This document shows, in pieces, positions 18,719 through 43,768 of a stretch of 64,000 nt of DNA. The position numbers and the translations under genes are program-made. Source of the DNA: Dictyostelium discoideum (Eukaryota); contig CM000153.2 in assembly GCA_000004695.1 (NCBI GenBank), positions 4,640,001-4,704,000 of the forward strand, read 5' to 3'. The number at the start of each line of letters is the position of its first letter. Positions within the stretch are counted from its first letter, which is position 1. Below the pieces are notes generated by a model that saw only the letters and a list, made by a program, of their open reading frames with translations, did not search any database and was not told where the DNA came from.

Positions 18719-18740
18719 AATAATAATAATAATATAATAA

Positions 18741-18827
18741 AATAAAATTAAATAAAATAAAATAAAATAAAATAAAATAAAATAAAATAAAATAAAATAA
18801 AATAAAATAAAATAAAATAAAATAATA
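18741..18827. repeat. (AAATAA)n microsatellite.
   Basis: Visible hexanucleotide run after the unit-1 surface-gene fragment. Confidence 0.9.
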
Positions 18828-19531: not shown

Positions 19532-19945
19532 ATGTTTTCTCCCAGGGATAGTTTCAATTTCTTTGATGACCCAACTTTTGGTATTAACCTCCAACCTCTC
19601 ACAACGACGTATGTTGAAGTGGAAGATTTGGAAAATGATATCAAAAGATTATCAAGTCTGTTCTATGAAGAGACTGTTCATCTTAGTTATAAATTACCCA
19701 ATTCTTTAAAGAAGTCTCGAAATTTCTTACAACCATACCTTAATATTAAACCTATTAAACATTCAAGACAAAACTATACACAATTAACAAACTCTATTGA
19801 CTATGCAAAAGTCTTTGTTCAAGAGTGTACGGCATGTTTTGATGATAATGTTGGTGTCAATAATTTATTAAGGGATATACTGCGTGGTATGGATAGTTTA
19901 AAGGTGCATTATTGTTCAGATGGTGGTATATTTTCATCTTTATAG
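19532..19945 (+). CDS. Small uncharacterised protein (137 aa), family copy 2.
   Basis: Intact paralogous ORF. The upstream (TA)n and CA-rich element (19476-19490) are conserved. Confidence 0.6.
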   Translation: MFSPRDSFNFFDDPTFGINLQPLTTTYVEVEDLENDIKRLSSLFYEETVHLSYKLPNSLKKSRNFLQPYLNIKPIKHSRQNYTQLTNSIDYAKVFVQECTACFDDNVGVNNLLRDILRGMDSLKVHYCSDGGIFSSL

Positions 19946-20592
19946 TTAACACTATAAAAATGGATTTATGCAATCATATTTTAATTTTTACTATTTATAT
20001 ATTCTTTATTTCATTCTTTTTTTTTTTTTCTCTCTTTTATTTTTGTTTTTTTTTGTTTTTTTTTCTTTTGTATATAACAAAAATACAAACTTCCAAAACT
20101 AAAAAAAAGTAAAAAAACAAAATCAAACAAAATCAAACAAAATCAAACAAAATCAAACAAAAAATTTAAAAATCAAATACAAAATCAAAAACAAAGGTAA
20201 CAGAAAAATTGAAAAAAAAAAAAAAAAAAAAAAAAAAATGAAATAAAAATATATAAATAATAAAAAAAAGTTTATCAAACAAAACAAATTAAAAATATCC
20301 TTCCTTCTAATCAACTTTCAATGTATGAATATACATTGAAGGTTGATTAGAAGGGAGGATATTCAAATCAAATCCCAATGTATCGGATACATTCCTTAGT
20401 TAGAATGAAGGGTTTTCTGTTTAGTTTAAAAGAAAAGTGAAATTCTGTTGCAATATCGATATCTGGTGTCTTAGAGTCAAACTATTTTCTCAATGGCATT
20501 CCAATCAATTTCCAAAATGCATTCTAGTTTTTCAATCAAAGAAATTCTATAAATAAACCATTTTAATCCTCTTAAAAAATATTGTTTTGATT

Positions 20593-20635
<43 letters not shown>

Positions 20636-20924
20636 TTCAATTACTCCTATTATTAAAAAAATATTTTTTAACTTCCTTTTATCAATTTTAAAATAATAAT
20701 TATACCAAAATGCATTTTTCATTTTATATAAGTGAAAATAAATAATCATTATTCATGGATTATATTTTAAAAAATGAAAGGACAAAACTAATCCATTTTT
20801 TTTTTTATTTTTTAAAATTTTGTTTTTTTTTTTTTCATCTTATTCATAATAAATAGAATAAAATAATAAATACTAATATCTTTTTTTTTTTTTTTTTTTA
20901 ATTTTAGCTTTAAATTTTTTAAAA

Positions 20925-21382
20925 TTAAATGGTGAACTAATAACATTGCAAATCAATGCAAATGGAAATAATGTATATGAAAGTGGTGATCAATGTGGTA
21001 ATTCAACATTTACTTATAATTCAATAAATGCAATTTCTTATTTTGAAACAATTAAAGTATATAATCAAACCTCAAAAATTTAAATTTATCCACATTGAAA
21101 TTACTTTAGATGACTCTTTATAAAATTGGTAATCCATTAATACTTTTTCAAAATAAAATTGAAATTTCGCCTTTAAATCAAAAATCTAAAAATGTAATCA
21201 TTGATGATTCTTCAATTAATAACAATAATAATAATAATAATACTAAAACATTTATTACAATGTCACCTCCTCCTGGTAATGTAGTTGAATCTTATAAATC
21301 ATATACAATTTTTAAAATTAATGGAATTAATTTCAACAATTTAACATTTACAATTGTAACTTTTGATAATTTTATAGCATAA
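20925..21382 (+). pseudogene. Decayed 5' fragment of the beta-helix surface-protein gene (array unit 2).
   Basis: Collinear with 28520-29000. There are in-frame TAA stops (for example ATT TAA ATT at about 21080). Confidence 0.6.
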
Positions 21383-22032
21383 ATTAAAATAAAAATAATA
21401 TTTGAAAAAAAAAATTAAATAAATATATAAATAAATAAATAAAAATAAAAATAAAAATAAAAAAAAAAGTGTATGTGTGTCTATTTTAAAAAATTATTTT
21501 TATCGCTCTATAAAAATATTTTTAATTCATTCCAACTCATAATTAACAACAGATAAAAAATTAAGATATGTATATATATAAAAAAAAAAATTATTATTTT
21601 TATTTAAATAATAGATAACAAATTAACCTCATTTTTATTACTATATAACAGTAAAAAATAATATTAACACTTTTTTTTTAAAAAAAAAAAAAAAAAAAAA
21701 ATAATAAAAAAAAAAACTGATCACTTAATTTTAGGTGAAAAAAAAAAATAAAAAATAAAAAAAAATAAAAAAAAAATATATATTTTGTTAAGGAATTTAC
21801 AAACAACAAAAAAAATTAATTTTTTTTTTTTTTTCTATTTTTTTTTTTATTTTTTTTATTTTTTTTATATTCACCTAAAATTTTTTTTTTTTTCTCATTT
21901 TTTTTTTTTTTTTTTTTTTTTTATAACACTATAATTAAATTAATAATAATAAAATAATAAAATAATTTAATTGTTTTTTTATATATCAAAAACACATATA
22001 TAATATTTTAAAACTCAAACTTTTCTACTACA

Positions 22033-22341
22033 ATGTCTTCTCAAGAAGGTGACCTTCCCCCTCTCAGCGATTACCCAGATGCAACTAAAGTGGATGAATT
22101 ATGGTGTAAAATCATTGCCCAATCAACTACTCCCCTTGAAATAACCAATTTATTGAACCAGTTTTCCCATTTCTTAAAGCCATGCCAAGTTAACTCACTT
22201 TCAAAGAACCCACAAACGAAAAAATTACTAGAACATTTAGAAAAGTGTAGGGGCCCATGTAATAATGATAATACCAACAATTTATTAAGCGATATGATAC
22301 AGAATGTCCAAAATTTAATTATATTATTAATGATCCCATAA
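22033..22341 (+). CDS. Divergent small-protein family member (102 aa), copy 3.
   Basis: It occupies the same slot in unit 3. It has weak but collinear similarity (CRGPCNNDNTNNLLSDMIQNVQNL versus CKSCFSDNVGVNDILRDILRDMDRL) and the same downstream flank (tatagttaactactataaa...). Confidence 0.4.
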   Translation: MSSQEGDLPPLSDYPDATKVDELWCKIIAQSTTPLEITNLLNQFSHFLKPCQVNSLSKNPQTKKLLEHLEKCRGPCNNDNTNNLLSDMIQNVQNLIILLMIP

Positions 22342-22949
22342 AGCAATAATAATTATATCATGTAATGGTATATTTTCAACTTTATAGTTAACTACTATAA
22401 ATATGGATTTATGCAATCACTATAGTTTAATTTTTATTATTTAAATTTTATTTATATAATATTTATTTCATTCTTTTTTCTTTGTTAACAAAAATACAAA
22501 CATCCCACACAATACAAAATCAAAAACAAAGATAAAAGAAAAACAAAAAAAATGAAATAAATAATATATAAATAATAAAAAATTAAATAATAAAAGTCAA
22601 ACAAATTAAAAATATGCTTTGATACATTCGTTTGTTACAAGGAGGGATTTTCTGTTAAATTTCGTTGCAATATCTGGTACCTTAGAGTCAAACTATTTTC
22701 TTGGTGTCATTCTAGTCAATTACCTAAATGTTTCCTGTTTCAATCAAAGAAATTCTCTAAATAAATTTAAAAACCTTACAAAAACTTTTTTTTTTTTTTT
22801 TTTTTTTTTATTTTATTTTATTTTTTTTTTTAATTTTAATTATCCATAATAATCAATCAAAACATTAAAAAAAAAAAAATAAAAAAAAATAAAATGATAA
22901 CATGTATATATATATTTTTTTAATTTTAACTTTTTATTTTTTAAAATTA

Positions 22950-23198
22950 AATGGTGAACTAATAACATTGCAAATCAATGCAAATGGAAATAATGTATAT
23001 AAAAGTGGTGATCAAAGTGGTAATTCAGCATTTAAATGTAATTCAATAAATGATGCAATTTCTTATTTTGAAACAATTAAAGTATATAATCAATCATTGA
23101 TGGCACCGATTAATAACAATAATAATACTATTAAAATATTTATAACAATATCACCTCTCCTCCTCTTGGTAATATGGTTGAATAAAAATAAAAAATAA
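22950..23198 (+). pseudogene. Decayed 5' fragment of the beta-helix surface-protein gene (array unit 3).
   Basis: ORF 22902..23198 retains the signal peptide and GELITLQINANGNNVYKSGDQSGNSAFKCNSINDAISYFETIKVYNQS. It then skips about 50 codons present in the full gene. Confidence 0.55.
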
Positions 23199-23745
23199 AA
23201 AGTGGTTGTGTATCAATCTTAAAATTTTATTTTATCACTCTGTAAAAATATTTTTAATTCATTCCAAAAATCATAATTAACCACAGATAAAAAAAATATA
23301 TTGTTTAAATAATAGATATTTTATTACCAATTAACCTCACTTATTTTGCTATATAAAAAGTGTTGATTTATATTATTACTTTAAAAAAAAAAAATAATAA
23401 CATTGGGATTTAATTTTATTTTTTACTCCAAAAAATTATCATTATTTTTTTTTTTTTTTTTTTTATAATATTAAATTAAAAAAAATAAATAAAATTAAAA
23501 AAACATGTTCTCTTATTTTTTTGGGTTAAAATGAAAATGAGATTTAATTTAATTATTTTTTTTTTCCACTCCCAAAATTTTTTAATTTTTTTTTATTTTT
23601 TTCATTTTTAAATTTTTTTTTTTTAGACACCATTTTTTTTTTTTTTCATTCCTTTTTTTATTTTCATCCATTTTGCACTATAATTATTATAATTATTTTT
23701 AAACACACACACTATTTTAAACATTTCTTTCCTTTCTTCCACGCA

Positions 23746-24138
23746 ATGTTTTCTACCTGGAATTTCTTTGATGACCCTCCTGGTATTAACCTCGAACCTC
23801 TCACAGCGACCTACGTCGAAGTGGAAGGGATAGAGAATGATATCAAGAGAGGATCGAGTCAATTCTATGAAGATACTGTTCATCTTTGTTTTAAATTACC
23901 CAGGTTTTTAAAGAAATCTCGCAATTTCTTACAGCCGTACCTTGATATTAAACATTCGAGACTAAACTATACACAATTAACAAACTCTATAGACTATTCA
24001 AAAGTCTTTGTTGAAGAGTGTATAGCATGTTTTGGTGATAATGTTGGGGTCAATAATTTATTAAAGAATATTCTGCGTGATATGGATAGGCTAAAGGTAC
24101 ATTATTGTTCAGATGGTGGTATATTTTCATCTTTATAG
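23746..24138 (+). CDS. Small uncharacterised protein (130 aa), family copy 4.
   Basis: Paralogous ORF (MFSTWNFFDDPPGINLEPLTATYVEVEGIENDIKR...KVHYCSDGGIFSSL) with a short N-terminal deletion relative to copies 1 and 2. Confidence 0.55.
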   Translation: MFSTWNFFDDPPGINLEPLTATYVEVEGIENDIKRGSSQFYEDTVHLCFKLPRFLKKSRNFLQPYLDIKHSRLNYTQLTNSIDYSKVFVEECIACFGDNVGVNNLLKNILRDMDRLKVHYCSDGGIFSSL

Positions 24139-24228
24139 TTAAAACTATAAAAATGGGTTTATACAATCATAGTTTAATTTTTATTCTTTATTATTACTAT
24201 TTCATTCTCTTTTTTTTACTTTCACCTT

Positions 24229-24285
<57 letters not shown>

Positions 24286-24419
24286 TTACAAAATACAAAC
24301 ATCACACACAACAAAAAATAACAAAAAACCAAAACAAAATCAAACAAAATCAAACAAAATCAAATATGAAGGGTAAAAGAAAAAATGAAAAAAAAAAAAA
24401 ATAATCAAAAAAGTCAAAC

Positions 24420-25560
24420 TATACAAATTAATAATATCCTTCCTTCTAACCAACCTTCATTGATATATCCGACGATAATACACCGAATGTTCAACAGAAG
24501 GAAGGAATTCAAATCTACCTCAATGTATCCTACGAGGATACATTGCGAGCTCCCAAGGATATTCAAATCTATCTCATTAGAATGAAGGATATTCAAATCT
24601 ACCCCAATGTATCCTATGAGGATACATTGCGAGCCCCCAAGGATATTCAAATCTATCTTCAATGAATCCGATGGATAATATTGGACACTCATTAGAATGA
24701 AGGATATTCAAATCAACCCCAATGTATCCTACGAGGATACATTGCGAGCCCCAAGGATATTCAAATCTATCTTCAAAGTATCCAATTGATAATACCTTGA
24801 AAACTAATTAGAATGAAGGATATTCGCCCCAATCTTCAATGTATCCGATAGGATACATTGAACCCTCTCAAGAAGGATATTCAATCTATCCTCAATGTAT
24901 CCAATTGATAATACCTTGAACACTCATTAGAATGAGGGATATTCAAATAAACCTTCGATGTATCCGATAGGATACATTGAACCCTCACCGAAATGATATT
25001 CAAATCTATCTTCAATATATCCAATGGATAATATATTGAACACTCAGTAGAAGGAAGGATATTCAAATCAACCTTCAATGTATCTGATACATTGAACCCT
25101 TATCAGAAGGATATTCAGTCTATATTCAATGTATCCGATGGATAATACATTGAACACTCAATAGAAGGAAGGATATTCATATCAACCGGTCAGATACATT
25201 GAACACTCATTAGAATGAAGGATATTCAAATCAATCTCCAATGTATGGGATAAATTCATCGGTTAGAAGGAAGGATATTTAATCAACCTTCAATGTATTC
25301 GATCGGATACATTTAACGCTCACTAGAAAGAAGGATATTCAAATCAATATCCAATGCATCCCATCGGCATACAGAACGCTCACTAGAGAAGGATATTCAA
25401 ATCAACCTCCAATGTATTGGATACATTCGTTGATTTGGGTCCTTCTCTAGTGAGCGTTCAATGTATGCCGATGGGATGCACTGAACGCTGATTAGAAGGA
25501 AGGATATTCAAATCAATGCCAATGTATGGAATACATTCATTGGTTAGAAGGAAGGATTTA
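24420..25560. repeat. 1.1-kb satellite-like tandem array of 55-60-bp units (an AB dimer of about 112 bp). Each unit carries the short palindrome CAATGTATCCGAT(A)GGATACATTG and a GGATATTCAAATC motif.
   Basis: By eye there are about 20 successive units. The array ends in a larger inverted repeat (cgctcactagagaagga ... tccttctctagtgagcg, 25378-25458). It sits where other units have the single hairpin. Confidence 0.8.
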
Positions 25561-25954
25561 AAAACAGAAAAAACTAAAAAAAGAAAAGTGAAATTCCATG
25601 TGCCTTGGAGTCAAACAATTTTCCCATTGAAATTCCAGTCAATTACCAAAATGCATTGCTGTTTCAATAAAGAAATTCTCTAAATAAATTTCAATACCAT
25701 TTTAATCCTCTTAATCAAAACAATAGTTTTTTTTTTTTTTTTAAATTAGTCCTTTTAGATTTTATTAAATAAAAAATATTTTTTTAACATCCATTTAATA
25801 ATAATAATTAAACCAAACGTATTTTTCATCATTAATAATAAAAAATGAAAAGACTATTTTTTTTTTTTATTATTATTCATATTAAATAGTATAAAATAAT
25901 AAATAATAATATCTTTTTTTTTTTAATTTTTAACTTTTTATTTTTTATAATTAA

Positions 25955-26450
25955 ATGGTGAACTAATAACATTGCAAATCAATGCAAATGGAAATAATAT
26001 GAAAGTGGTGACCAATGTGGTTATTCAACATTTACATGTAATTCAATAATTAATGCAATTTCTTATTTTAAAAAAATTAAAGTATATAATCAATCCTCAG
26101 AAATTTAAATTTATCAACCATTGAAATTACTTTTAGATGATTGTATATATAAAATTGGTAATCAATAATATTTTTTCAATATAATATTGAAATTTTGCCT
26201 TTAAATCAAAAATCTAAAAATGTAATCATTAATGATTCTTCAATTAATAACAATAATAATAGTATTAAAACATTTATTATAATATCACCTCCTGGTAATG
26301 TGGTTGAATCTTATACAATTTTTTAAACTAGTGGAAATAAATTCAACAATTTCACATTTACAATTGTAACTTCTTTAAATAATTTTTAACATAATTACAT
26401 AATCCATCCAATAGTATTGGTGGGGTTGTATTTGAAATATTTATTTTTTA
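25955..26450 (+). pseudogene. Decayed 5' fragment of the beta-helix surface-protein gene (array unit 4), fused to about 60 bp derived from the antisense strand of the Cys-rich gene at 15553-16260.
   Basis: 26382-26450 (aacataattacataatccatccaatagtattggtggggttgtatttgaaatattta) matches 15870-15935. The upstream part matches 28530-28960 with indels. Confidence 0.55.
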
Positions 26451-26464
26451 CATGTATAAAATTG

Positions 26465-26523
<59 letters not shown>

Positions 26524-26772
26524 CTAGTATGAATTTAAAATAAAAATTAAAAGCAATTAAATTAAAAAATCACTTCTCTCATTTTTTTAAGTTTTGTGTA
26601 AAATATCTCGAGATTTAATCTAATTATTTATTTTTTTTTTTTTTTTTTTTAATTTTTAAATTTTTTTTTTTTTTTTTTTCACCTTTAAATTTGATTTTTT
26701 TTTTTCATTCTCTTTGAATAAGACCTTACTGTTTTAATTTTAATATTTCTTTTTTTCCCATCCACCACGGCA

Positions 26773-27159
26773 ATGTTTTCTCCCGGGGATAGTTTCAATT
26801 TCTATGATGACCCAACTCTTGGTATTAACCTCCAACCTCTCACAACGACGTATGTTGAAGTGGAAGATATAGAGAATGATATCAAGAGAGTATCAAGTAT
26901 GTTCTATGAGGACACTGTTCTTCTTAGTTATAAATTACCCGAGCATTTAAAGAAATCACGTAATTTCTTACAGCCATACCTTGATATTAAACATTCAAAA
27001 TTAAACTATACACAACTAACAAACTCTATTGACTTTGCAAAAGTCTTTGTTAAAGAAGGTATAGCTTGTTTTGGTGATAATGTTGGTATCAATAATTTGT
27101 TAGAAGATATATTGCGTGATATGGATAGGTTAAAGGTATATTATATTGAAATAGTGTAG
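26773..27159 (+). CDS. Small uncharacterised protein (128 aa), family copy 5. The C-terminus is altered and it may be decaying.
   Basis: Paralogous ORF ending ...RLKVYYIEIV instead of KVHYCSDGGIFSSL. Confidence 0.45.
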   Translation: MFSPGDSFNFYDDPTLGINLQPLTTTYVEVEDIENDIKRVSSMFYEDTVLLSYKLPEHLKKSRNFLQPYLDIKHSKLNYTQLTNSIDFAKVFVKEGIACFGDNVGINNLLEDILRDMDRLKVYYIEIV

Positions 27160-27431
27160 CATATTTTCATTTTTATAGTTAACATTATAAAAATGGATTT
27201 ATGCAACAATATTTTAATTTTTATTATTATTTTAATTTTTATATTATTTATTTCATTCTTTTTTTTTCTTCTTTTTTTTCTTTATTTTTTTCTTTTTTTT
27301 GTTTGTACTTCCCACACAACAACAAAAAAAAAAAAAACAAAAACAAAAAAATAACAAAAGATAACCAAACAAAATCAAACAAAATCAAACAAAATCAAAT
27401 AAAATCAAAAACAAAGGTAATAGAAAAAATG

Positions 27432-27468
<37 letters not shown>

Positions 27469-28006
27469 AAATATATAATATATAAATAATAAAAAAAGTT
27501 TATCAAACAATATTAAAAATATACTTCCTTCTAATCAAACTTCAATGTTTGGATACATTGAAGGTTGATCAGAAGGAAGAATATTCAAATCCCAATGTAT
27601 CGGATACATTCCTTGGTTAGAATGAAGGGTTTTCTGTTTATTTTAAAGAAAAGCGAAATTCTGTGGCAATATCGACATCAGGTGCCTTAGAGTCAAACTA
27701 TTTTTTCAATAACATTCCAATCAATTTTCAAAATGCATTCCAGTTTTTCAATCAAGGAAATCCCCTAAAATAAATTTAAATACCATTTTAATACATAAAA
27801 ACTGTAACTTTTTTTTTTTTTTTTTTTTTTTTTAGTTCAATTACTCCTATTTTATTAAAAAATATTTTTTAACTTTCTTTTACCATACCAAATGTATTTT
27901 TCATTTTAAATGTAATGAAAATCATTATTTGAAGAATATATTTTAAAAAATGAAAGGACAAAACTTACCCAGATTTTTTTTTTTTGGATTTTCAAGAAAA
28001 AAAATA

Positions 28007-28037
<31 letters not shown>

Positions 28038-28189
28038 GAGTAAACTTTGTCTTTTTAAATTTTATTAAATAAAAAAATATTTTTTTAACATCTATTTAAA
28101 TAATAATTAAACCAAATTTATTTTTCATCATTAATAATAAAAAATAATTATTATTCAAACAATTTATTTTAAAATAAAATGGAAAGACG

Positions 28190-28410
28190 ATTTTTTTTGA
28201 GGTTTTATAGAAAACCTTCATTTTCTTGAAACACACAATTTTATTTATTTTTATTTTTATATTTTTAAATTTTTTTTTTTTGGGTTTTAAAGAAAAACCA
28301 TCTTTTTCCCAATAACTACAATTTTATTTATTTTTATTTTTATTTTTTTTAATTTTTTTTTTGGATATTTTCTTAAAAACAGACCATTTTGATTTTATTT
28401 TCTATTTTTT
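28190..28410. repeat. Tandem triplication of an about 85-bp AT-rich unit (..gg[gt]tttta[at]agaaaa[ac]c.tc.ttt...caattttatttatttttattttt..).
   Basis: Three successive similar units at 28195-28275, 28282-28360 and 28363-28410, immediately upstream of the full-length surface-protein gene. Confidence 0.5.
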
Positions 28411-28475
28411 TTTTTTTTTTTTTATTTTAATCATTCGATCGAAACATTAAAAAAAAAAAAAAAAAAAATTATAAA

Positions 28476-29993
28476 ATGATAAAATATATTTTTCCATTTT
28501 TTTTAATTTTAACTTTTTATTTTTTAAAATTAAATGGTGAACTAATAACATTGCAAATCAATGCAAATGGAAACAATGTATATAAAAGTGGTGATCAGTG
28601 TGGTAACTCAACATTTACATGTAATTCAATAAATGATGCAATTTCTTATTTTGAAACAATTAAAGTATACAATTAATCATCAGAAATTCAAATTTATCAA
28701 CCATTGAAATTACTTTTAGATGATGGTATTTATAAAATTGAAAATCAATTAATACTTTTTGAATATAATATTGAAATTTCACCTTTAAATCTAAACTCTA
28801 AAAATGTAACCATCGATGGTACCTCAATTTATAACAATAATAATAATAATATTAAAACATTTATTACAATATCACCTCCTACAGGTAATATAGTTGAATC
28901 CTATAAATCCCATAGCATTTTTAAAATTAATGGAATTAATTTCAATAATTTCACATTTACAATAATTTACATTTATAAAACTTATTTAAATGTAGTAGGA
29001 TCATTTGAAAATTGTAATTTTAATAATTTTAAAAGTGAATTTCCAATGTTTTACCTAATTAATAATAATAATAATAACATAATAAGTAATTTATATTATA
29101 ATATAAATTCATCATTTGCTTTAACGAATTGTTCAATGATCAGTAATTCAAATATAGGTTATAATTCATCTATAATTAATAGTAAAAAATTCAGTGTACT
29201 TATTTATCGATCAAAATTCCAATCAATTAATGAATGTAATAATTTTGGTTACTTTTATGATAGTTCTCGATTAACAATTTATAATAGTTCAATAAATAAT
29301 AATAATTGTAAAATAATTTTCAATATAAATAAAATTAATAAGTTAGATGTATTCAATACAAAATTTGAAAATAATAATGGAACAATATTCAATATTAAAT
29401 TTAATTCAAATGAAGGTTTAATTTCAATTAAAAATAGTAGCTTTATCAATAATTATGGTGGTAGTATTATTAATTTAGAATCAAATAATAATATTCCTTT
29501 TGAAAATTTAAAAAAAAATCCACAACTATTTAGAGACTCTACATTTTTTAATAATTCATTCAATGGAAATGGAAGTATAATTAATTCAATTGGTGCTTAT
29601 TTTATTGTTTCTGGTGAATTTGAAAATAATAAAGCATTAAATCACCAAGGTGATTTATTTTATTTACAAGATAGTTATTGTTTAATAGAAGATTCAAAAA
29701 TAAATCAAGTTAATAATTTACCAAGTGGTAAAGGTTCAATAATTTATTTACAAAAATCAGAATTAGAAATATCAAGTGGTAATTTCAAACTAGATGGTTC
29801 ACTTGTTTGTAATTCTTCAAAAATAAAACTTTTACGAAATACAATTGTTTTTAAACCTACTATTGACTGTCAAAATTGTACCTTTAATAACAATAATTAT
29901 TGTGAACTTAATTTTGGAATAAAAAATAAAATATCAATTCTTTTAAATTTAATAATATTATTACTATTATTATTATTATCACTATCAATATAA
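28476..29993 (+). CDS. Secreted/GPI-anchored beta-helix-like surface protein with polymorphic-membrane-protein-type repeats (FxxN and GG[AS]I-like). It is full length but carries an in-frame TAA at 28674-28676, so it is either a pseudogene or N-terminally truncated.
   Basis: ORF 28476..28676 (signal peptide MIKYIFPFFLILTFYFLKLNG...) and ORF 28704..29993 (TTG-initiated in the track) are in the same frame and separated only by the TAA. Repeats include FINNYGGSIIN and FNGNGSIINSIGAYF. The C-terminal tail is hydrophobic ([18 protein letters not shown]). Confidence 0.5.
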
Positions 29994-32736: not shown

Positions 32737-33728
32737 TTAATGTTGGTTATAAAATCTTTTATTTGAAGTGAAACCATTACTATTATTATTATTTTTATTA
32801 TTAAATCTTGTTGGTTGGTCTTCTAAATCAATTATTTCAAGTTCTTGATCAGTATTATTTCCTTTACCATTATGATAGTGATGATGAGTATGATTATGAA
32901 TTGGTACAGCATTTGGTGGTATTGGGAAACCCATTTGTTTATTACTACCACTATTATTAAAAAGTTGATTATTATTATTATGATGATGATTAAAATTTGA
33001 ATTCATACTATTCATTATATGTGTACTTCTTGGTGTATAAAATAATGAGTTACTATTATTACTTTGATCATCATCACCATCACTATTACCATTATTATGA
33101 AAAGTATGAGTTAAATGACTAGCACCACCAGTACTAGCACCAAAACTTGTGGAGTTAAAATTACTCATACCAAAACTTGAATTACCCATACTACCCAAAT
33201 TAAAATTACTTTTATCAAAAATCTTTTTTGAATTATTACTAATATTACTAAAACCTTTACTATTATTAGAAGAGGTTGAATATTTTAATGAACTTCCACT
33301 TGTGTCAACTGTATCATTAAATTCTAATGGTGTTGATGATAAAAATGATGGATTTATATCTTTATAATTTATTGATTGATTCATACTATTATTACTTTGT
33401 TGTTGTTGTTGTTGTTGTTGTTGTTGATAGTATTGATTTTGAGATTGTTGTTGAGATTGTTCATTAAAGTTTATATTTGGCATTGAAGTATTATTTAAAA
33501 ATGGGGATTTTTGATTTTGATTTCTATCGAAATTTACAGATTTGCTAATTTGTTCATTTGTAGTTGTTGGATTTAAATTTAAATTCTTTAAAGGTGAAGA
33601 AATTACTTTATAATTTAAACTTGTAGTAATATTATTATTGTTATTGTTTTGATTCGTACTTGCACTATTATAGAATAATGATGATTGATTATTACCATTA
33701 TTTATAGATGAATTTCTATTACTACTAC

Positions 33729-33777
<49 letters not shown>

Positions 33778-34548
33778 GTTATTATTTTTATTATTATTGT
33801 TATTATTACTACTATTATTACTCTTTAGCATTGATTCATCTAAAAATTGGCTATTGTTGTTTTGATCACCATTTTGGTGTTGTTGAAATTGAAACTCTTG
33901 ATATAAATGATTAATTGGTTGACCATTTTTATCATAAAATATTTCCACTTGAGTTGCTGATTCATTATATATACTACTATTATTATTATTATTATTCTCA
34001 AATATTAAATCACTATTATTACTACTACTTGTATCACCTCTACTATAAATTGAATATTGATTTCTATCTTCATTAAATTCAACTTTTGATTCTCTACCAC
34101 TTAATTTATTTATACTATTATTATAGTTATTATTATTATTATTGATATTGGTGTTATTACTGTCAATACTATTATTATTATTATTAATTTTCTTTGATTT
34201 GGTTGATGAGGAGAATGTTAAATTATTACTATTTATATCATTTTCATCATTTATTTCGTCATTATTATCGCCATCATCATCATCAATAAATAAAGTACTA
34301 TTATGTGTATTGTTATTATTATTACTACTACTATCGTTTCTATTTATATCCCCACCATCATTATTGTTATTATTATTACCGTTATTTATATTTTTATTAT
34401 TATTATTATTATTTTCAGAAGAGGTACTACTTGTGAAAAATGCAAATTTTGAAGGTGTATTCTTTAAAGAAGAACGTAGTTGTTTTGATGAGGATGTGGA
34501 AATAGAATTTTGATGATTTTTATGAATTGGTGTAATTGTTGAAAATGG

Positions 34549-34597
<49 letters not shown>

Positions 34598-35106
34598 GTT
34601 TTATTATTGCTTTTTATTGAAAAAGATGTAGACGATGTTTGTGATGTTTGTGATGTTTGTGGTGGTGGTGGTGGTGATGGTGTTTTTATTGGTGTTGTTA
34701 TTTTATTTATAATTTCATTTTGTTTCTGTTGTTGTTCTTGTTCTTGTTCTTGTTCATCATCAGTATTATTATTTTCATCTTGTTGATATTTAAAATTATG
34801 ATTATGTTGATGATTAATTTTATTATTAAAGTTTTGATTATTATTAATTATATTATTTTTTAAAGGTGTTTTAGTTAATATTGAATCTAATGGTGAAGAT
34901 TCTGGGTGTATTATAATATTTCTTAATTGGTCGATTCTGGGTGTTGAAAGTGCAAAATGTTCTTGTATACAATCAATACCAAATAATAAGGTTATCTTTA
35001 TCACTTCATTCCATTGTTGTTCTGGAAATAATTGAAGATATGAATTTATTGCTTTTGATGCTTTAGAAATACTAAAAGATGTTGAATTAATATTCTTATC
35101 TTTCAT
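32737..35106 (-). CDS. Hypothetical low-complexity (poly-Asn/Gln/Ser-rich) protein of 789 aa with a short structured N-terminal domain.
   Basis: Long intact ORF. Only the first about 70 aa (…AINSYLQLFPEQQWNEVIKITLLFGIDCIQEHFALSTPRIDQLRNIIIHPES) look globular, and no domain is recognised. Confidence 0.5.
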
Positions 35107-35218
35107 TTTCTTTTTCTTTTTTATTATTTATTTTTTTTTTTATATTTTTATTTTTTTTTTTCTATAAATTATTATTAATTTTTATTTTTATTTCTTTAAT
35201 ATATTTGTTTTAATCAAT

Positions 35219-35261
<43 letters not shown>

Positions 35262-35754
35262 AAAATTTGGAAAAGATTTAAATTGAAAAAAAAAAAAAAG
35301 CGCCAAAAAAAACACTTTTTCTTTTTTTTTTTTTTTTATTTTTATTTATTTTATTTTTTAATTTTTTTATTTTGAATGTTAGCATAAAAAATTGACGTGA
35401 ACTTATTATTAGAATTTTTATTAATTATTTCAAATAATATTACAACTTCAAAACACACATTAAAAAAAAAAATAAAAAATTAAAAAATTAAAAAATAATA
35501 ATAAAAAAAAAAAAATTAATTTAAAAAATAATAAATTAATAAAAAACAAAATGAATAAAAATTTGGGTCAAAATAAAATTTTCATATATATTAAAACAAA
35601 CAAATACATACATAAATAAACAAATACATAAATAAAAAAAATAAAAAATAAAAAATAAATAATAAAAAAAAATAAAAAAAAAAAAAAAAATAAAAAAAAA
35701 TAAATAAAAAAAATAAATAAATTAAAAATTAAAAATTAAAAATTAAAAATTAAA

Positions 35755-36272
35755 ATGGAAATACCAAATTTATCAGGATATTGTATTGATATAAATAAAA
35801 AAGAATATAATTCATTTGGTAAAGGAAGTAAAAGTGAAGGTGGTAATTGTTATCAATTAAACATTTATAAAGAAGTTGTATTAAAAGATCAAAAGAGATT
35901 AGAGGATGCACCAAAAAGTTTAAAGAATATTGATGTTTATGGTGGAGAGATTGGTGATTCAGAATATGAACCCATTGGATATAGAATAGGTGATTTAAAA
36001 AATAATATAAATGCAATCACCTTTTCAAATTTAACTATTGGTAAAAATTTAAATTCAACAACCATTGATTTATATCAAAATCAATATGGTATAATTTTTG
36101 AACCAAATGATATTCCAACTAAAATTTCAATTAATCCATTATCAAACTCTAATGATAATGATCCGACAAGTAAATTATTTTATCAAAATTTTCAAGATAT
36201 TCAATTTGAATTAAATCAACATTTTTGTTTATCAATTGGTTCTGTAATTTTTAAAATTATAAATAATAATAA

Positions 36273-36308
<36 letters not shown>

Positions 36309-37179
36309 TTCATCGTCATCATTTTCTTCTTCTTGCTCAACAATTGGAGAATTTTGTCAAATACCTGGTATTGAAAATGAATCAATTTATAAATTATTAG
36401 AACAAGATCCAATTAAATTTGTAAATAATTATTGTAATGCAAGTAATAAAGATTATTTAGATTTAAAAAAGTTTATTCAAAGATTACATTCAATATTTAA
36501 TCTCGTAAATTGGTCAATAGATTTTCAAAATTATCCAGCTTTATTATTTTTAATTTCAAATATCTATAGAGAAATTAATGAACAACATAAAGAATATCAA
36601 TTAGGAGTTGCAAAAAGATTAGAATATATCATTGAATTACCATTGATTTTACCATCAAATGAAATAAATCAATCATTTTCAAATCAATTATTAAATTTAT
36701 TTAAAGAAAATAATCAATTTCAAAAACCATTATTATTAAATTTATCTTTATTAATAAATAATAATATTAATAATAATAATAATAATAATAATAAATCAAA
36801 TAATGATGATATTTTTAAATTAATAATTAATAATGATAAATTTTTAAATTTATTTAAATCATTATTATCAAAAAATAATGAACAAGAAATTAAAAAACAA
36901 TATTATTTTACAACTAATATTAATCAATTTGAACCAATTTCAAAACAAATTATTAATGAAGAATTCATTTTAAAATTAGTTTCAATTATTAAATCTAATG
37001 GTATAAATGGTTTAATATTAAATAAAGATAGATCACCTTATTTAATTTTACCATCATCAAATTGTTTAATTGAACCATCAACTATTAAATTTGATGATTC
37101 ATTAACAAATCTTTATTCAAAAGAAAATCAAAACAAAACAATTAAATTTTTAGAAAAATTAAATAATATTAAAAAATAA
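35755..37179 (+). CDS. Hypothetical protein (474 aa) with a poly-Ser tract.
   Basis: Intact ORF with a canonical ATG and A-rich upstream context. No domain recognised. Confidence 0.5.
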
Positions 37180-37267
37180 TAAAAATTTAAAAATAAAGCG
37201 AAAGCAATCATGATGTTTTTTTTTTAAAAAAATAATAATACACAATATTTTATTTATTTATTTATTT

Positions 37268-39169
37268 TTAATCATTACCTAATTTTTTTAATTTATTTAA
37301 ACCAACTTTAATATTTGTTTGATTTCTTTTATATAATATAAAACCAACAATTATGAAAATTGTAGAACCAACAACACCAACAACTACACCTATAGTAATT
37401 TTTACCCATTCCCTTGATTTTTCATTATTACATCCTTGTTCATTTGTTGATGAAGTATGATCAATAAAAATACTAAAAGATGGATCCATTTGAATTAAAT
37501 TTTCATAATGTGGTATATTAATTGCTATTGATAAATTTGTTGAATTCGTAAATAAATATGAATTTGATAATGTTGTTATTGTACCATCAACAATACCTCT
37601 TTTTATAAAATTACAATTTAATGATCTATCATTTAATTTAATTTTAAAATTATCTAAATTATTATATATATTGATTGAATTAGTTGGACAATCATTTTCA
37701 ATTTGACTATCAACTTGACTTTGAATTATTAATTTCAAAGTATTTAAATCACTTTCAAATGAATAACTTGAAATTTCTATATTAAATTTTAAAGAATATG
37801 GTTCAATTTTAATTTCTTGGTTTGCAAATTTAATTTTATTATTAACATTTGAATCAATATCTTTATACCAATTAAATAATACTTTAATTTCTGTAGATTT
37901 ATTTAATGATTTTGAAATTGATGTTGAATTAATAGTTGTATTATAAAAATAGGTTTCAATTTGTTTGGTATCATTAATGGTTTGATTATTATATGACCAT
38001 AATATTGATTCTAAATTATATTGTTTTATAATTTTATCTTGAAAATCAAGTTCATTTAATGATTTAATTATAATTAATGATTTAAATTTTGAATTTTCAA
38101 ATAATTCTGTATTTGGACTTTTTAAATTAAATGATGTAGTTGAATTTTTGGATGGTTCTAAATTTGGAAAAGTGGGAGTTATTATTATACAATTCGTATT
38201 ATTATTAGTAAGAGTGAATGGACAATCACAACTATATGTACCAATTTTATTATTACAAATAAAATTTATTGGACAAGTATAATTATTAAAATCGCCATCT
38301 GAAATTAAACATTCATCAATATCAATACAATCACCTTTAGCATTTAATTTAAAACCTGGACTACAATAACAATCTGCATTGACTCTATCACATGTTCTAT
38401 TACCAACACATGGATTAATTGGTTGATCACAAAAATTAATTCTACAAAATTCATCAATTTGATATGCTTTATCACATAAACATTTACTATTATTTACACA
38501 TTTTCCATAATTACAATTTGGACATTTAAATTCTGCATACCAAAAAGTTGAATAATATGAATTTATTGCACCAAATTGTTTACAATAACCATTTCCATTT
38601 GTTTCATTTAAAACCAATAATGATGAATTAAAATTTGGTATGAAATATGTGATATTATTTGAACAACTTTGAATAATTAAATCTTTTTCAATTTTATAAT
38701 TAACTGTTTTAATAAAGGAATCACTTGAATTTAAACAATTTTTTCCAAAATTATAAATATTTGTAGTATAAAAATTTGAGTAACAATTTGTAACTGGTAA
38801 ATTACCATTTTCAATTGTATAATAATTTGTTCTACCTATTTCTGCGTATCTAATTTTAATTAATTAATATTTAGAGAAAAAAAAAAAAAAAAAAAATGAA
38901 AAAAAAAAAAAAAAAAAATTATCTTACATTGGAGGTGAAGTAGGTGTTATAATAGGACATTTAGGTTGAATTGTAAAGACATAGCTATTTGAATAACCAA
39001 TAGATTTACACATGACTCCTTGAATTTGTTCATTTTTTATATTAGAACAACCATAATTTGTATAATTTGAAACTGATGAGCATTGTGAAAAAACAAAATT
39101 ATTTTTGTTTAAGTGAACTATAAATAATAATATTAATATTATTTTGATATTACCAAATATTTTAACCAT
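37268..39169 (-). CDS. Type I membrane protein with EGF-like/calcium-binding EGF domains. Two exons: 38928..39169 and 37268..38849.
   Basis: Exon 1 has a signal peptide (MVKIFGNIKIILILLFIVHL..) and ends ..TSPP at the GTAAGA donor. The acceptor is aattag and phase is 2. Exon 2 has multiple Cys-rich EGF modules including cbEGF DIDECL...C.C, a long N-glycosylation-rich stalk, a TM segment (ITIGVVVGVVGSTIFIIVGFILY) and a short cytoplasmic tail. Confidence 0.65.
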
Positions 39170-39455
39170 TTTATATCATTTAATAATAAAATAAATTAAA
39201 TGATTTATAAAAAAAAAAAAAAAAAAAAAAAAATTTCGTTAAAACTTGATCTATCTAAAAAAAAAACAATTTGGTTAAAACTTGATTTATAATATTTTCA
39301 GAAAAAAAAGTTTTTTTTTGTCAAAATTGTTGTCCTATTAAAATTTATAAAACATAAGGAGTCTCATATAAATTTTTTTAATTTTTTTTTTTGTCTAATA
39401 CATATATATTTTATCTTTACTAATTTCAGTCATTTTTAAACTTTCACCAATAGTT

Positions 39456-40028
39456 GTGCCATGTAAAATATGTGGCCAAAAGGTATCACTTTCTGATATA
39501 AAAAATCATATTTTAGATGAATGTATACCAGTTTTTTTAGACATTTATGGTTTAAGGCATCAATTACCAAATCAAAATGAATATAAATCCCTATTGGAAG
39601 AAAACAATAAATTAAAACATGAAGTTTACATTTTAAAAGAAGAAAATTCTAAACTAAGATATATATCATCCTCAAACTCAACAATTTCATCAAGATCAAG
39701 CGATGTATATCCAGTAGTATCAAATGAAAATAATGATAGCGAATTAGTAAAAAAGGAACCAATAGAATATAAAGAGTCAGAAATTAAATTTTATGATGAA
39801 TTTATAGATGTAGATTTAAATAATGATGCTTCAACATGCTTTTTAGCACAAACTTTTAAAGAAAAAAGTGAAGATGATAAAATAATTAATGTAATACATT
39901 GTCCTAAACCAGCAAGGGGGAGTTTAATAATTGATGTAATCCATGGTAATTATTCTATCACAGTGTGTAAATTTACACATTTTACAGAAATGAAATCATT
40001 GGAGGCGATTAGAAAAATATTTATGTAG
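39456..40028 (+). CDS. Hypothetical protein with an N-terminal C2HC-type zinc-finger-like motif (CKICGQKVSLSDIKNHILDEC) and a coiled-coil region. Start uncertain: the track M is a GTG, and a 5' exon may be missing.
   Basis: A 190-aa ORF immediately upstream of the Harbinger-like transposase gene. It could be co-mobilised, and it has no Myb/SANT signature. Confidence 0.3.
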   Translation: MPCKICGQKVSLSDIKNHILDECIPVFLDIYGLRHQLPNQNEYKSLLEENNKLKHEVYILKEENSKLRYISSSNSTISSRSSDVYPVVSNENNDSELVKKEPIEYKESEIKFYDEFIDVDLNNDASTCFLAQTFKEKSEDDKIINVIHCPKPARGSLIIDVIHGNYSITVCKFTHFTEMKSLEAIRKIFM

Positions 40029-40134
40029 TTTCCAAAAGGTGTTGGAAACTACATAAATATTGAAATTCATATTGGTTATTGGTAATCCAGATGATTTTAT
40101 TTTTAAATGATCTGTACATTTAAAACCACATACA

Positions 40135-41317
40135 ATGCATTTTCCAATTCTTAATGGATCAGCTTTATTTACATCTTCTTTTTTTGAATCTAAAGTCATT
40201 GGAGCTCTTAGAATTTTTAATAATACTAGTTTAAAAGTGTGGAAAAATTATCATGAAAGTAAGTATTTTTATATTAATTTAAAAATTTTAATTTTAATAT
40301 TTATTAATATTTTGATATATTAGTTTTAGAAGAAAAAAATAATAAATTAGTAAATCATACACAACATAAAATAAACAACATTGCCACAGAAGAAACAATT
40401 GATGATACAACTTCAAGTAATCAAAGTGAGCCAAGTAAGCCAAGCAAGCCAAGTAAGCCAAGTGAGCCAAGTGAACCAAGTGAGCCAAGTGAACCTGTTA
40501 ATGCAACTACAACAATAGAAGGTAAAAAAAGAAAATACACAAAAAAAAAATAAAAAAAAAATAGTAGTTTATTAAATAATTTATAAATTAATTAAGACTT
40601 CTATTGTTTTTTAATTTTATTATTATTTTTTCATACTAATATTAGTATATTTGTTTTTAAAAAGGATTAAATGATAAAGATTTTAAATCGTTAATTGGGA
40701 TTACTAAGATTCAATTTCAAGATTTATTAAATAAAATTTCACAAAAAACAAAAAAAAAGAGATAACAGGGGGAGATCAAGTATTTATAATGTAAAAGGTA
40801 AACTTATTATAACTATGATTTGGCTTCGTCATTATCTCAAACCGATTATTTTTAAAATTTTATTTAAAGTGAGAATGTTATAAGAAATTATACAGATCAA
40901 ATAGTTGAAATTTTATATTTATTATCTTTTGATAGTTTTAATTATCACACAATTAATAGGATTAATCAAAAAGCAGTTTTTATTAATGAATTAAATGAGC
41001 AATGTATTGTTACATCCATTGTGGATAGATCAGAGCAAAGATCAGTAGTTGCATTGGATAAAATAGCTAAAATTAACAACTTCAGTGCTAAAAAAGGATA
41101 TCCTACATTAACCAAATTCGTTTTTTGTAGCCCTGATGGTAAAATACAATATTTATCGAAAAGTAGAAATGGATCAAGGAATGACCAATCCATGATGTAT
41201 GAAGTTAGTGAATTTATTAATAAATTCGATGACTCTTGTGAACATATAATGGGCGATAAAGGCTTTCAAGGATCCGATAAATTATATTCTAAATTTTTAG
41301 TAATTTCGAGAAAAACC

Positions 41318-41369
<52 letters not shown>

Positions 41370-41659
41370 TAATAATAATAATAATAATAATAAAAATAAT
41401 AATGATGGTGATATAAATGGAGAATGTTTTGAACCAGAATATTATATAAGCGATGAAAAAGAATCAGAAGCAAGGTTTAAATCGATTAGAATAATAATTG
41501 AAAATGTTTTTGCTCATTAAAAAATATTCAATTACCTGTCTCACTTTTAGATTTAAGAATAAGATTGAATCAACAACTTTATTGGACTATCATCATAAAA
41601 TTTGGTGTGTTGTTGCATTTTTGGTTAACTTGTATGTTGAAATTAGAAAGAAAGAATAA
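40135..41659 (+). mobile_element. Degenerate Harbinger/PIF-superfamily DDE transposase gene (DDE_Tnp_4-like). Upstream exons are 40135..40256 and 40324..40499. The main exon from 40667 has an HTH region, three frameshifts, an internal poly-Asn insertion, and a D..D..E core.
   Basis: Spliced in phase as ...KNYHE|ILEEKNNKLVNH...SEPSKPSKPSKPSEPSEP...TTIEG|GLNDKDFKSLIGITKIQFQDLLNKISQKTKKKR. After a +1 shift in an A9 run comes RDNRGRSSIYNVKGKLIITMIWLRHYLKPIIFKILFK (GRPR/WLR.Y Harbinger motifs). After another shift comes SENVIRNYTDQIVEIL...QCIVTSIVDRSEQ...KKGYPTLTKFVFCSPDGKIQYL...HIMGDKGFQGS... (41021-41416 ORF in the track). Then (N)17, then ESEARFKSIRIIIENVFAH|LKKYSITCLTFRFKNKIESTT...IWCVVAFLVNLYVEI (a -1 shift at GCTCATTAAAAAAT). 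Confidence 0.7.
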
Positions 41660-42181
41660 ACTCTCATATTAATTTAATATGAAAAAAACATTTTCATTTC
41701 AAAAAAAAAACTTTTTTTTCTGAATATATTATAATATGAATAAAATAAAATTTAATTTACCCCAAAAATATCTTACACAAAGGATTTAATTTTTATTTTA
41801 AAAAGATTTTTCGGCATTATATTTTAATCAAAGGGGCTGCCAGGAATGAAAATATCTTAAGCCTATAGAATTTTCTAAATTTTTTTTTTTTTTGAGACCA
41901 CCTTTTCCATATCACTCACCTTGGAATTTCTTTTTTTTTTTTTTTTTATTTTTTTTTAATATTGATTAATCATAGTTTATACTTAAAGGAAATACACAAT
42001 AACTAATAGTTTTATTTAGAAATTTTTTTACTTCATTTTATAATTTAGTTTTTCGATTTTGGTTTGAATTTTAAAATAGTGTTGTTGGTTTTGTTATTAT
42101 TATATTATATTATTTTTTTTTTTTTTTTATATTTTATTTATATGAATTGGTTGAATGAGATGAGATTTGGTCGCACAAAGT

Positions 42182-42747
42182 GTTTTCCGAGACGATTTTT
42201 TTTTTTTTTTTTTGATATAAATAAACTATTGTAGTATACAATTAGTATGTTATTTTTATTTATTTATTTTAGGTTTTTTAGTTTTTGTGAATTTAAAATG
42301 GTATGTTATTTTAGATTAGGTAATTAATAATTAATTGGTGGTGTAATTGTTGGAATTGGTTCATAAGTGTTTATGCTCCATTCTTTTTTAAATTTTTTGA
42401 TTGTTTCGGACCATTGGGTTTCTTTTTGAGTTTTTGTGAGGTTGTTTTTAATTGAGTAATGGTTGAAGTTTGATAATGTTCTTGAATATTCCAATCTTAT
42501 TAGCTTGTGCCATTTTGATTTTAATATATCATAATCTAGTGTTGTGTTGTTTATTTGGTTGTTCCAATTATCAATTGATTGAGTTATATTGATGTCAAAT
42601 AATGATTTGCATAACCATATCCATATTTGGTGAATAACTAATGAGATTATGTTCCAATATGCATGTGTTCTGACTAGATCAAGATTTGTGTTTATATAAT
42701 TCCAGTTGAACCTGTATTTTTTATATTGTGCGTTTTCCGAGACGAGA
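42182..42747 (-). mobile_element. 5'-truncated non-LTR retroelement (TRE3-like) inserted about 45-55 nt downstream of the tRNA gene, just past its external B box. It has a poly(A) tail and a 14-bp target-site duplication GTTTTCCGAGACGA.
   Basis: TSD copies are at 42182-42195 and 42732-42745. Poly(T) on the plus strand (poly(A) of the element) is at 42196-42213, abutting the first TSD. The minus-strand ORF (42324..42764 in the track) covers the 3' end of ORF2, and the plus strand is G/T-rich like the element at 1-1270. Confidence 0.65.
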
Positions 42748-42762
42748 ATCGAACACTCGACC
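42737..42762 (-). promoter_or_regulatory. External B box (ex-B, RNA polymerase III TFIIIC site) downstream of the tRNA gene.
   Basis: The minus strand reads GGTCGAGTGTTCGATTCTCGTCTCGG. GTGTTCGATTCTC matches the B-box consensus GGTTCGANTCC and lies about 33-45 nt 3' of the tRNA, which is the typical Dictyostelium ex-B position. Confidence 0.55.
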
Positions 42763-42788
42763 AATTTCCCCTGTAAAAAAAAAAAAAT

Positions 42789-42884
42789 TGGAGAAGAAGG
42801 GTATCGATCCCTTTACCTTATGGAAATCTGATTATCGTTGCTGTTTATGCAAACCATACGCTCTACCATATGAGCTACATCCCC
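42789..42884 (-). tRNA. tRNA-Ala (anticodon UGC) with a 23-nt intron between positions 37 and 38.
   Basis: The minus strand reads GGGGATG TA GCTC ATATGGTA GAGC G TATGG TTTGCA [TAAACAGCAACGATAATCAGATT] T CCATA AGGTA AAGGG ATCGATA CCCTT CTTCTCC A. It has a 7-bp acceptor with G3:U70 (Ala identity; U6:U67 mismatch), a 4-bp D stem, a 5-bp anticodon stem, a 5-bp T stem, and an A box TAGCTCATATGG. The 5' half and T arm are near-identical to the human tRNA-Ala as recalled from memory. Confidence 0.8.
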
Positions 42885-42915
42885 ATTGACGAAAAAATTT
42901 AATTAATAGCAGTTA

Positions 42916-43768
42916 CCATATTAATAGTGTAATCAGAAACAACAACAACAACAAAACAACAACAAAACAAAATCAACTACAACTACAACTACACTGGCAA
43001 TGCAAGCAAGCATGGACCCAATTAAAAACTCCACAAAATAAACAAACACACTACGAACACCTCCCAAAATTAAAAAAAATATACGAGGATATGATGACAA
43101 CTCAATCTCCAGAACACAACAAATTCATACCAACTCCTGGCCAAAAAGAAATAATGACCAAAATTAATAGCAAACACCTTCCATTTAAAGAAATCAAAAA
43201 AATAATAAACATGAAAGGTAGAGATCTATTATGGAGATACACACTGAAAGCATTACCAAAAATATACAACATGCCATGCCAACAGTGTGGGGAAGATGAG
43301 ACTTCAGAACATATATTCTTCAACTGCAAAGCCCACATCAAAAACACACAAGAAATATTCAACTACACCCTAACTAAGTGTGGACACACCACTCACACCT
43401 GGAATGTGAAGATTTTAAACCATCTACAAATCGCACTAGTAGCCAATTTAATAGCTATTATATTCGAAAGAATCTGGCACAAAAGAAATAAACTCATTCA
43501 CGATGAAAAAGAAATAATAATTCACAGACAACAAGTCATACGTGAACTGATTAAAACACAAAGAGCTGCATGGGACAGGACACAAGCGGTTATAAACAAA
43601 ACATTAAGAATCAAATCAAAGCAACGGCCAGAAGAACAAAATAAATTAGACTCCTTAATTTCGGTAAAGCTATTCCAATTTAGCAGACAAGGGAACTCCC
43701 CTTTTTCCCCAAAAAAAATTTCCGAAACATTTCAAAAAAAAAAAAAATTCCCCCGGGCTTTTTTTTAA

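Follow-up and report, generated by a model that had tools for sequence, protein, structure and literature searches.

The genome of the social amoeba Dictyostelium discoideum contains a frame-broken sequence that resembles a transposase gene, and the question it raises is whether this is what remains of a mobile element, and of which kind, or a host gene derived from one. The sequence lies in a stretch of 64,000 nucleotides (contig CM000153.2 of assembly GCA_000004695.1, positions 4,640,001 to 4,704,000 of the forward strand), here called the window, and coordinates given without further label count from its first letter. A first-pass annotation, made from the letters alone, had placed a relic Harbinger-type transposase with two spliced 5' exons and three frameshifts at 40135-41659 and had wondered whether its family was dead or domesticated. 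We conclude, with a probability of about 90%, that window positions 39286-41736 represent a single, old, and now inactive insertion of a PIF/Harbinger-type cut-and-paste DNA transposon (IS5-related, DDE_Tnp_4). The relic is 2451 bp long with TGA at both flanks, and with these triplets the full feature spans 39283-41739, beyond the bounds first given. Its single gene encoded an HTH_Tnp_4 plus DDE_Tnp_4 transposase. The copy in the laboratory lineage AX4, which the window represents, is unable to make transposase and is ordinary genomic debris.

The transposase is recognized by its domain. The stitched translation of 40661-41656 (plus strand) matches Pfam DDE_Tnp_4 with E=6.6e-15 and 55.5 bits (cutoff 24.8), and the unbroken frame 40868-41320 alone still matches with E=4.3e-10, so the match is independent of the stitching of frames. 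Plant_tran, the other Pfam family that had been proposed as a check, gave no match to the stitched protein at E up to 1. The conserved blocks follow one another in the order first described, and the earlier reading of a nonfunctional Harbinger-type relic holds: GRSS..KGKLIITMIWLRHY lies at 40770-40835, IVDRSEQ at 41018-41038, IMGDKGF at 41246-41266, IIIENVF at 41491-41511, and HHKIWC at 41591-41608. All three catalytic residues are still encoded (41024-41026, 41255-41257, and 41500-41502), and the D-D-E triad can be aligned throughout the family (DGSEQ / GDKGF / IIIENVF; alignments A3 and A5); next to the first Asp, the Gly of the family DGSEQ is replaced by Arg in the relic, which reads DRSEQ. 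On the plus strand, the first part of the core with both Asp residues, the second in GDKGF, occupies 40868-41368 (Pfam, A3, and A5). It is followed by the block with the catalytic Glu (RFKSIRIIIENVFAH, 41368-41517; frames and homologue alignment) and by the C-terminal block with the stop codon (LKKYSIT..HHKIWC..LVNLYVEIRKKE, 41513-41659), which aligns with the relatives P0002, P0003, and P0040. The HTH_Tnp_4-like helix-turn-helix region precedes the core at 40663-40871 on the same strand, as seen from the reading frames and a weak Pfam match (E=0.015), and is broken by a frameshift. In the relatives P0040, P0044, and P0069, HTH_Tnp_4 scores above the Pfam cutoff, and DDE_Tnp_4 in relatives reaches E=4e-23 and up to 82 bits over the full-length model. 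A sequence search of the PDB found no solved homologue. For P0040, the AlphaFold model has a mean pLDDT of 65.7, with 75 to 92 in the core; its best PDB matches in a fold search were Mos1 transposase, MMTV integrase, and RNase H, all of them weak.

The element has recognizable ends. An inverted-repeat search of the window returned a 33-nt pair of terminal inverted repeats (TIRs), 97% complementary, at 39287-39319 and 41702-41734, and these align with the termini of related copies at loci L001, L003, and L004 (alignment A1). With the repeat pair and A1, the left TIR (TTTATAATATTTTCAGAAAAAAAAGTTTTTTTTT, plus strand) is placed at 39286-39319, with its outer end uncertain by about 4 nt, and with sequence inspection in addition the right TIR is placed at 41702-41736 (minus strand). 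Putative copies of a target-site duplication (TSD), both TGA, lie at 39283-39285 (sequence inspection and analogy with loci L002, L003, L004, and L006) and at 41737-41739 (sequence inspection). The TTA/TAA flanks of the relic as aligned by MAFFT were rejected in favor of TGA/TGA, which lies 4 to 5 nt further out, since the duplication proven for the family is TGA and the triplet is symmetric at both ends; for the relic itself we infer this assignment by analogy. A 36-bp tandem duplication (39221-39290, 1.9 copies, 91% matches; ..GTTAAAACTTGATCTATCT / ..GTTAAAACTTGATTTATAA) extends from the left flank across the TGA into the start of the element. The 64-kb window contains no L003-type TIR and no other fragment of the family, so the relic is the sole copy there.

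That the family moves as a transposon is seen best in wild D. discoideum. In one such strain (GCA_054859385), two copies, L003 (10007-11476) and L004 (9423-10962), occupy different chromosomes. They are 96 to 99% identical over about 1.5 kb and have TIRs of about 58 bp; they are short, internally deleted elements of about 1.5 kb without the zinc-finger region. The L004 site is empty in strain ACTFIW (L006, GCA_054859355), where the sequence reads ...ACAATGAGTAGG... and, in the longer reading, ...ACAAAAACAATGAGTAGGAGAT.... The filled site reads ...ACAATGA/TAATAAAG...CTTTATTA/TGAGTAGG... (longer reading ...ACAATGA/TAATAAAGTCAATTT...AAATTGACTTTATTA/TGAGTAGGAGAT...; slashes mark the boundaries). 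This pair proves an insertion polymorphism with a 3-bp duplication of TGA, of which the empty site has a single copy, and it is the only pair that decides the duplication directly. TGA is found at both ends of L003 and L004 and at both flanks of the Heterostelium copy L002, which is 2.27 kb long with 73-nt TIRs (82%), and it abuts the one end seen in each of two further copies, the left end of L001 (D. cf. discoideum) and the right end of L011. The search for other copies with TIRs that the first-pass annotation had proposed thus succeeded, with TIRs from about 58 bp to 73 nt. Its prediction of a TAA or TTA duplication was correct in the length of 3 bp and wrong in the triplet. Since near-identical, strain-polymorphic copies are present in wild D. 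discoideum, the family is not extinct, contrary to one possibility raised before.

The relatives were gathered by a search with the stitched protein and then with a family profile, and the exhaustive profile search returned 3549 relatives at E<=1e-3. Within the Dictyostelia they occur in Heterostelium, Cavenderia, Polysphondylium violaceum, D. firmibasis, D. cf. discoideum, and wild D. discoideum. Cavenderia, P. violaceum, and D. firmibasis gave single annotated matches, and in the other three there are several copies per genome. Outside this group, a protein of 515 amino acids from the heterolobosean Willaertia magna (P0136) combines a C2HC finger at its N terminus with a DDE_Tnp_4 domain (E=2.8e-20) in a dictyostelid-like layout, which may point to a broader distribution or to horizontal transfer between soil amoebae. 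Full-length members have 580 to 690 amino acids (P0070, P0069, P0079, P0071, and P0044), and intact relatives encode a single protein of about 640 to 690 amino acids that comprises, from the N to the C terminus, a C2HC finger, a coiled coil, a Cys/His module, an FCS/MYM-like finger, an acidic/basic linker, HTH_Tnp_4, and DDE_Tnp_4.

This layout explains the zinc-finger open reading frame (ORF) at 39456-40028, which had been taken for a possible partner protein. The zinc-finger and DDE parts are fused in frame in P0070, P0044, P0043, P0071, and P0079, and the ORF is therefore the N terminus of the same transposase. In the N-terminal coding block (39441-40022, plus strand; tblastn and A5) lie a C2HC zinc finger (PCKICG..H....C, 39459-39524), a stretch resembling a coiled coil, and a Cys/His module that reads HCPKPARG..VIHGNYSITVCKFTHF. 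Residues 1-173 of P0070 align to 39423-40019 in tblastn, and A5 aligns end to end. The ORF listing holds no ATG before 39456, and the zinc-finger ORF starts at GTG.

In the AX4 copy, the next part of the gene is inverted. The family segment LIRQILRIPMSMDS...KCSACGNKCTDRLKIKPSGLP is encoded on the window minus strand, from 40226 down to 40050 (P0002 and P0070 matches), and the same segment is on the plus strand in L001 and L002 (the tblastx match is reversed relative to L001). The left breakpoint is a perfect 20-bp palindromic junction found by sequence inspection (AATATTTATGTAGTTTCCAA / AAGGTG / TTGGAAACTACATAAATATT; 40016-40061, arms at 40016-40035 and 40042-40061), which creates the TAG that ends the zinc-finger ORF. 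The inverted segment (40041-40221, minus strand; tblastx and protein matches) reads LLKILRAPMTLDSKKED..KCIVCGFKCTDHLKIKSSGLPITN.. and encodes the first half of the FCS/MYM-like zinc finger, a label that refers to the motif pattern CxxC...FCxxxC only. Turning back about 40041-40221 restores one open frame, 39441-40257; the breakpoints are good to about +/-5 bp and the size is about 180 bp. At the other breakpoint there is a duplication of a short stretch that codes for IRKI / LLKIL. Together, the micro-inversion and its palindromic junction resemble inversions that arise from staggered breaks.

The inversion also bears on the first of the two 5' exons of the first-pass annotation. The supposed exon 1 (40135-40260, with ATG at 40135) is mostly an accidental ORF antisense to the inverted segment, and only NNTSLKVWKNYHE (40219-40257) is homologous to the family. 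The terminal part of the zinc-finger exon, which has kept its original orientation (NTSLKVWKNYHE, 40222-40258, plus strand), aligns with SNISVKNWREK of P0002 and with the family in A5. A putative short intron in phase (GTAAGT...TTAG, 40259-40322, plus strand), its splicing predicted from the sequence, leads to exon 2, a low-complexity linker exon (40323-40523, plus strand) whose 9-bp tandem repeat at 40424-40492 encodes the SEPSKP repeat already noted (TRF). Next come a basic stretch, KKRKYTKKK (40524-40553), and a putative AT-rich intron that runs to 40662. P0002, P0040, and P0069 have an acidic/basic linker at the same position, and every family member has a low-complexity linker there.

The remaining lesions are frameshifts. 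The coding path has five frame segments (40661-40759, 40752-40871, 40868-41368, 41368-41517, and 41513-41656), which means four frame changes and not the three listed before. The first shift lies in an A9 run at 40750-40758 and the second at TTTAAAGTG (40863-40871, plus strand; TTTAAAG at 40863-40869), a site that aligns with VVFGLSKNT of L001. The third, which had been missed, is inside the AAT run at about 41369 (AATAATAAT/AT/AATAAT), where one base is missing. The fourth is at GCTCATTAAAAAAT (about 41511-41524) and breaks the catalytic-Glu block at about 41516-41518. The AAT run itself is an (AAT)29 array (41318-41403, plus strand; TRF) that encodes the poly-Asn insertion, N17 in frame as reported, within the loop between the second Asp and the Glu, and this loop differs in length among all members (A5). 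An AX4-like assembly, GCA_054883475.1 (CM142510.1), is 100% identical to the window over 39034-43650, and we take it as independent because it differs from the window at 43654-43765. The frameshifts persist in this second assembly; they are therefore not errors of the reference assembly, and the lesions are real, including the three first listed.

The other copies examined in detail carry damage as well. L001 is truncated and contains an in-frame TGA, a single frameshift and a single stop interrupt L002, and L011 (1-3854, the P0069 copy) is 5'-truncated. In L003 and L004 there are frameshifts at homopolymer runs, two of them shared and one private to each, and since P0041 of D. cf. discoideum is open at one of the shared sites, some of these shifts may be long-read consensus errors. 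Taken together, the damage in these copies fits a selfish element and not a domesticated gene. Beyond KNFIV, from 11508 onward, L001 gives way to unrelated DNA of higher GC content, and L011 lies near the pol gene of a long-terminal-repeat (LTR) retrotransposon (RVT_1, RNase H, and integrase). Both look like nested transposon insertions.

Related genomes give some indication of the age of the AX4 copy. In Dictyostelium citrinum (L010), the adjacent ComC-like gene is intact and the flanks of the relic, 39169-39284 and 41740-41832, are separated by about 115 bp; the element is thus absent from the corresponding site in this species. In two wild D. discoideum strains (L005 and L009), 36 to 69 bp replace 4.57 kb (window 38167-42738), a deletion that takes out the relic and the 5' half of the ComC_SSD/EGF membrane-protein gene at 37268-39169 (minus strand) and ends about 50 bp from a tRNA gene.

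Several points weigh against our interpretation. The orientation of TGA relative to the element is the same in every copy, so the triplet could belong to the element ends in some copies. The outermost 4 to 5 nt of the relic are unlike those of other subfamilies, and its exact ends and TSD are for this reason drawn by analogy. The empty site in D. citrinum is AT-rich, low-complexity DNA in which the alignment is only approximate, and strains L005 and L009, having lost the whole region, are uninformative on the insertion. Every match of the fold search with the P0040 model lies above E=1e-3.

It could be argued that the locus is a domesticated, HARBI1-like host gene in which introns or sequencing errors are mistaken for frameshifts. 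The three catalytic residues are indeed still encoded, there are two plausible short introns, and the annotation of the AX4-like assembly calls a gene of 292 amino acids at exactly 40135-41659 and another of 174 amino acids over the zinc-finger ORF. However, the four frame changes fall within conserved blocks that offer no space for introns, and the second assembly repeats them exactly. The zinc-finger segment is inverted, there is no ATG, the TIRs and TGA flanks are kept, and the damaged copies described above come from three species. Moreover, the locus is missing in D. citrinum and, by deletion of the region, in two wild strains. We consider domestication, which the first-pass annotation had left open, to be very improbable. 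An equally slim chance is left to a recent horizontal gain of a bacterial insertion sequence of the IS5 family in place of a eukaryotic Harbinger-type element. There are weak matches to the NCBIfam models of IS5 and IS982 transposases, and metagenomes contain many relatives of 260 to 310 amino acids whose origin is unknown. Yet the dictyostelid proteins score at most 31.9 bits against a cutoff of 140, they carry eukaryote-style N-terminal zinc fingers, and they are found across the Dictyostelia and in Willaertia; the element also has a base composition like that of Dictyostelium, introns, and poly-Asn.

A more serious rival, which we still regard as unlikely, is that the relic is a diverged copy of a DNA transposon already catalogued in D. 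discoideum whose affinity to Harbinger went unrecognized. The most plausible candidates are thug-S and thug-T; the Tdd-4/5 and DDT-A/B/S elements encode integrase-like proteins and so should not be candidates. According to the literature, thug-S is a DNA transposon whose gene contains an intron and which makes up a small part of the genome, 0.1% (PMC4894637; PMC5633606). The DNA transposons listed for D. discoideum are only Tdd, DDT, and thug, and their transposases are described as unlike known ones, a statement that cites a review of 2011 and may be outdated (PMC5633606). On the other side, no protein of AX4 (DDB_G) or of the AX4-like assembly was among the homologues from two homology searches and the exhaustive profile search, whereas wild-strain assemblies gave many; as AX4 protein sets may leave out the genes of transposons, this absence is weak evidence. 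Small RNAs extracted from PMC4894637, a paper on miRNAs that include thug-S-derived ones, are absent from the window and from L001 to L004, and it is not certain that one from thug-S is among them. Two small-RNA papers list no thug elements in their supplements.

Our preferred reading, an inactivated PIF/Harbinger-type insertion, can be compared with the known systems. PIF/Harbinger elements are evolutionarily linked to bacterial IS5 (PMC3673617). The family shares with PIF/Harbinger an HTH_Tnp_4 domain before DDE_Tnp_4, TIRs, a 3-bp duplication of a fixed triplet, and short, internally deleted copies such as L003 and L004; the domain pair, the TIRs, and the 3-bp duplication are the reasons for placing it there. 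It differs in its target, which is TGA and not TWA (TTA/TAA) at every copy examined, in the lack of a Plant_tran match, and in having fused N-terminal zinc fingers instead of a second, Myb/SANT-like gene. One transposase gene fills the 2451-bp element of the window, and likewise the 2.27-kb Heterostelium element and the 1.5-kb L003 and L004. A single transposase with an N-terminal zinc-binding domain, in that case THAP, fused to the DDE part is also the plan of ISL2EU elements, which make 2-bp duplications; the family described here has C2HC and FCS/MYM-like fingers, no THAP match, and a 3-bp duplication. ISL2EU-type elements are merged into PIF/Harbinger by some classifications and listed separately, linked to IS4, by others. 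HARBI1 and its domesticated relatives have DDE_Tnp_4 in common with the relic, which keeps its TIRs and TSD, is lesioned, and is not conserved in the sister species. The homology to bacterial IS5 in the HTH and DDE domains is distant (transpos_IS5_4 matches P0040 with E=8.6e-8, far below cutoff), and eukaryotic gene structure, extra zinc fingers, and a long linker set the family apart. With thug-S it shares the host, an intron-containing gene, and low copy number (PMC4894637; PMC5633606), in a comparison made by description only.

A literature search turned up no report of Harbinger-type elements in Dictyostelium. The family is probably undescribed for social amoebae; the main reservation is its possible, though unlikely, identity with thug-S or thug-T. 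The domain assignment is not new, as UniProt labels proteins of Heterostelium, D. firmibasis, and P. violaceum "DDE Tnp4 domain-containing protein." We are inclined, by a narrow preference, to see the relic as the AX4 trace of an undescribed PIF/Harbinger-type clade of the Dictyostelia and Willaertia, in which fused zinc fingers replace the Myb-like protein and insertion is targeted to TGA, and which is still transposing in wild D. discoideum and in the laboratory lineage seems to have left debris only.

In this family, one transposase would bind the TAATAA-type inverted termini through its HTH and zinc-finger modules, and its RNase H-like DDE domain would then excise the element and reinsert it at a TGA triplet, which would be duplicated in the process. 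The AX4 copy probably inserted into the 5' intergenic region of the ComC-like gene after the split from D. citrinum. Its later decay comprised loss of the ATG, the micro-inversion of about 180 bp in the zinc-finger region, the four frameshifts, the Gly-to-Arg change, and the expansion of poly-Asn.

For annotation, this means that the gene models of 292 and 174 amino acids in the AX4-like assembly should be treated as one transposon pseudogene and that the dictyostelid proteins of this family listed as "hypothetical" or "DDE Tnp4 domain-containing" are transposases. A cut-and-paste family with proven insertion polymorphism between wild strains would provide a new marker system for strain comparison, and it would be a possible source of an endogenous DNA-transposon tool. 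It would also extend a DNA-transposon catalogue whose transposases were called unlike known ones (PMC5633606). For transposon biology, a TGA target and zinc fingers fused to the transposase depart only modestly from the Harbinger scheme.

The GC content is about 15 to 29% across the window, and its AX4 origin is seen from four ORFs that exactly match DDB_G0286575, DDB_G0286579, DDB_G0286589, and part of glutamine-fructose-6-phosphate transaminase XP_637560. The tRNA gene next to the 4.57-kb deletion (42789-42884, minus strand, 96 nt) presumably contains an intron; Rfam finds it with 49 bits, and ARAGORN does not. The wild strains have conserved the gene, and in D. citrinum its orientation is reversed. 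Directly downstream of it, an ORF of 146 amino acids (42324-42764, minus strand), called as a gene in the AX4-like assembly, has no Pfam match and could be a fragment of a tRNA-targeted (TRE-type) retroelement. Window positions 16000-29000 and 33600-39200 contain several paralogous segments, with 75 to 89% identity to the same stretches of L005, and carry genes of the ComC_SSD/EGF type; the neighborhood is a tandemly duplicated gene-family cluster.

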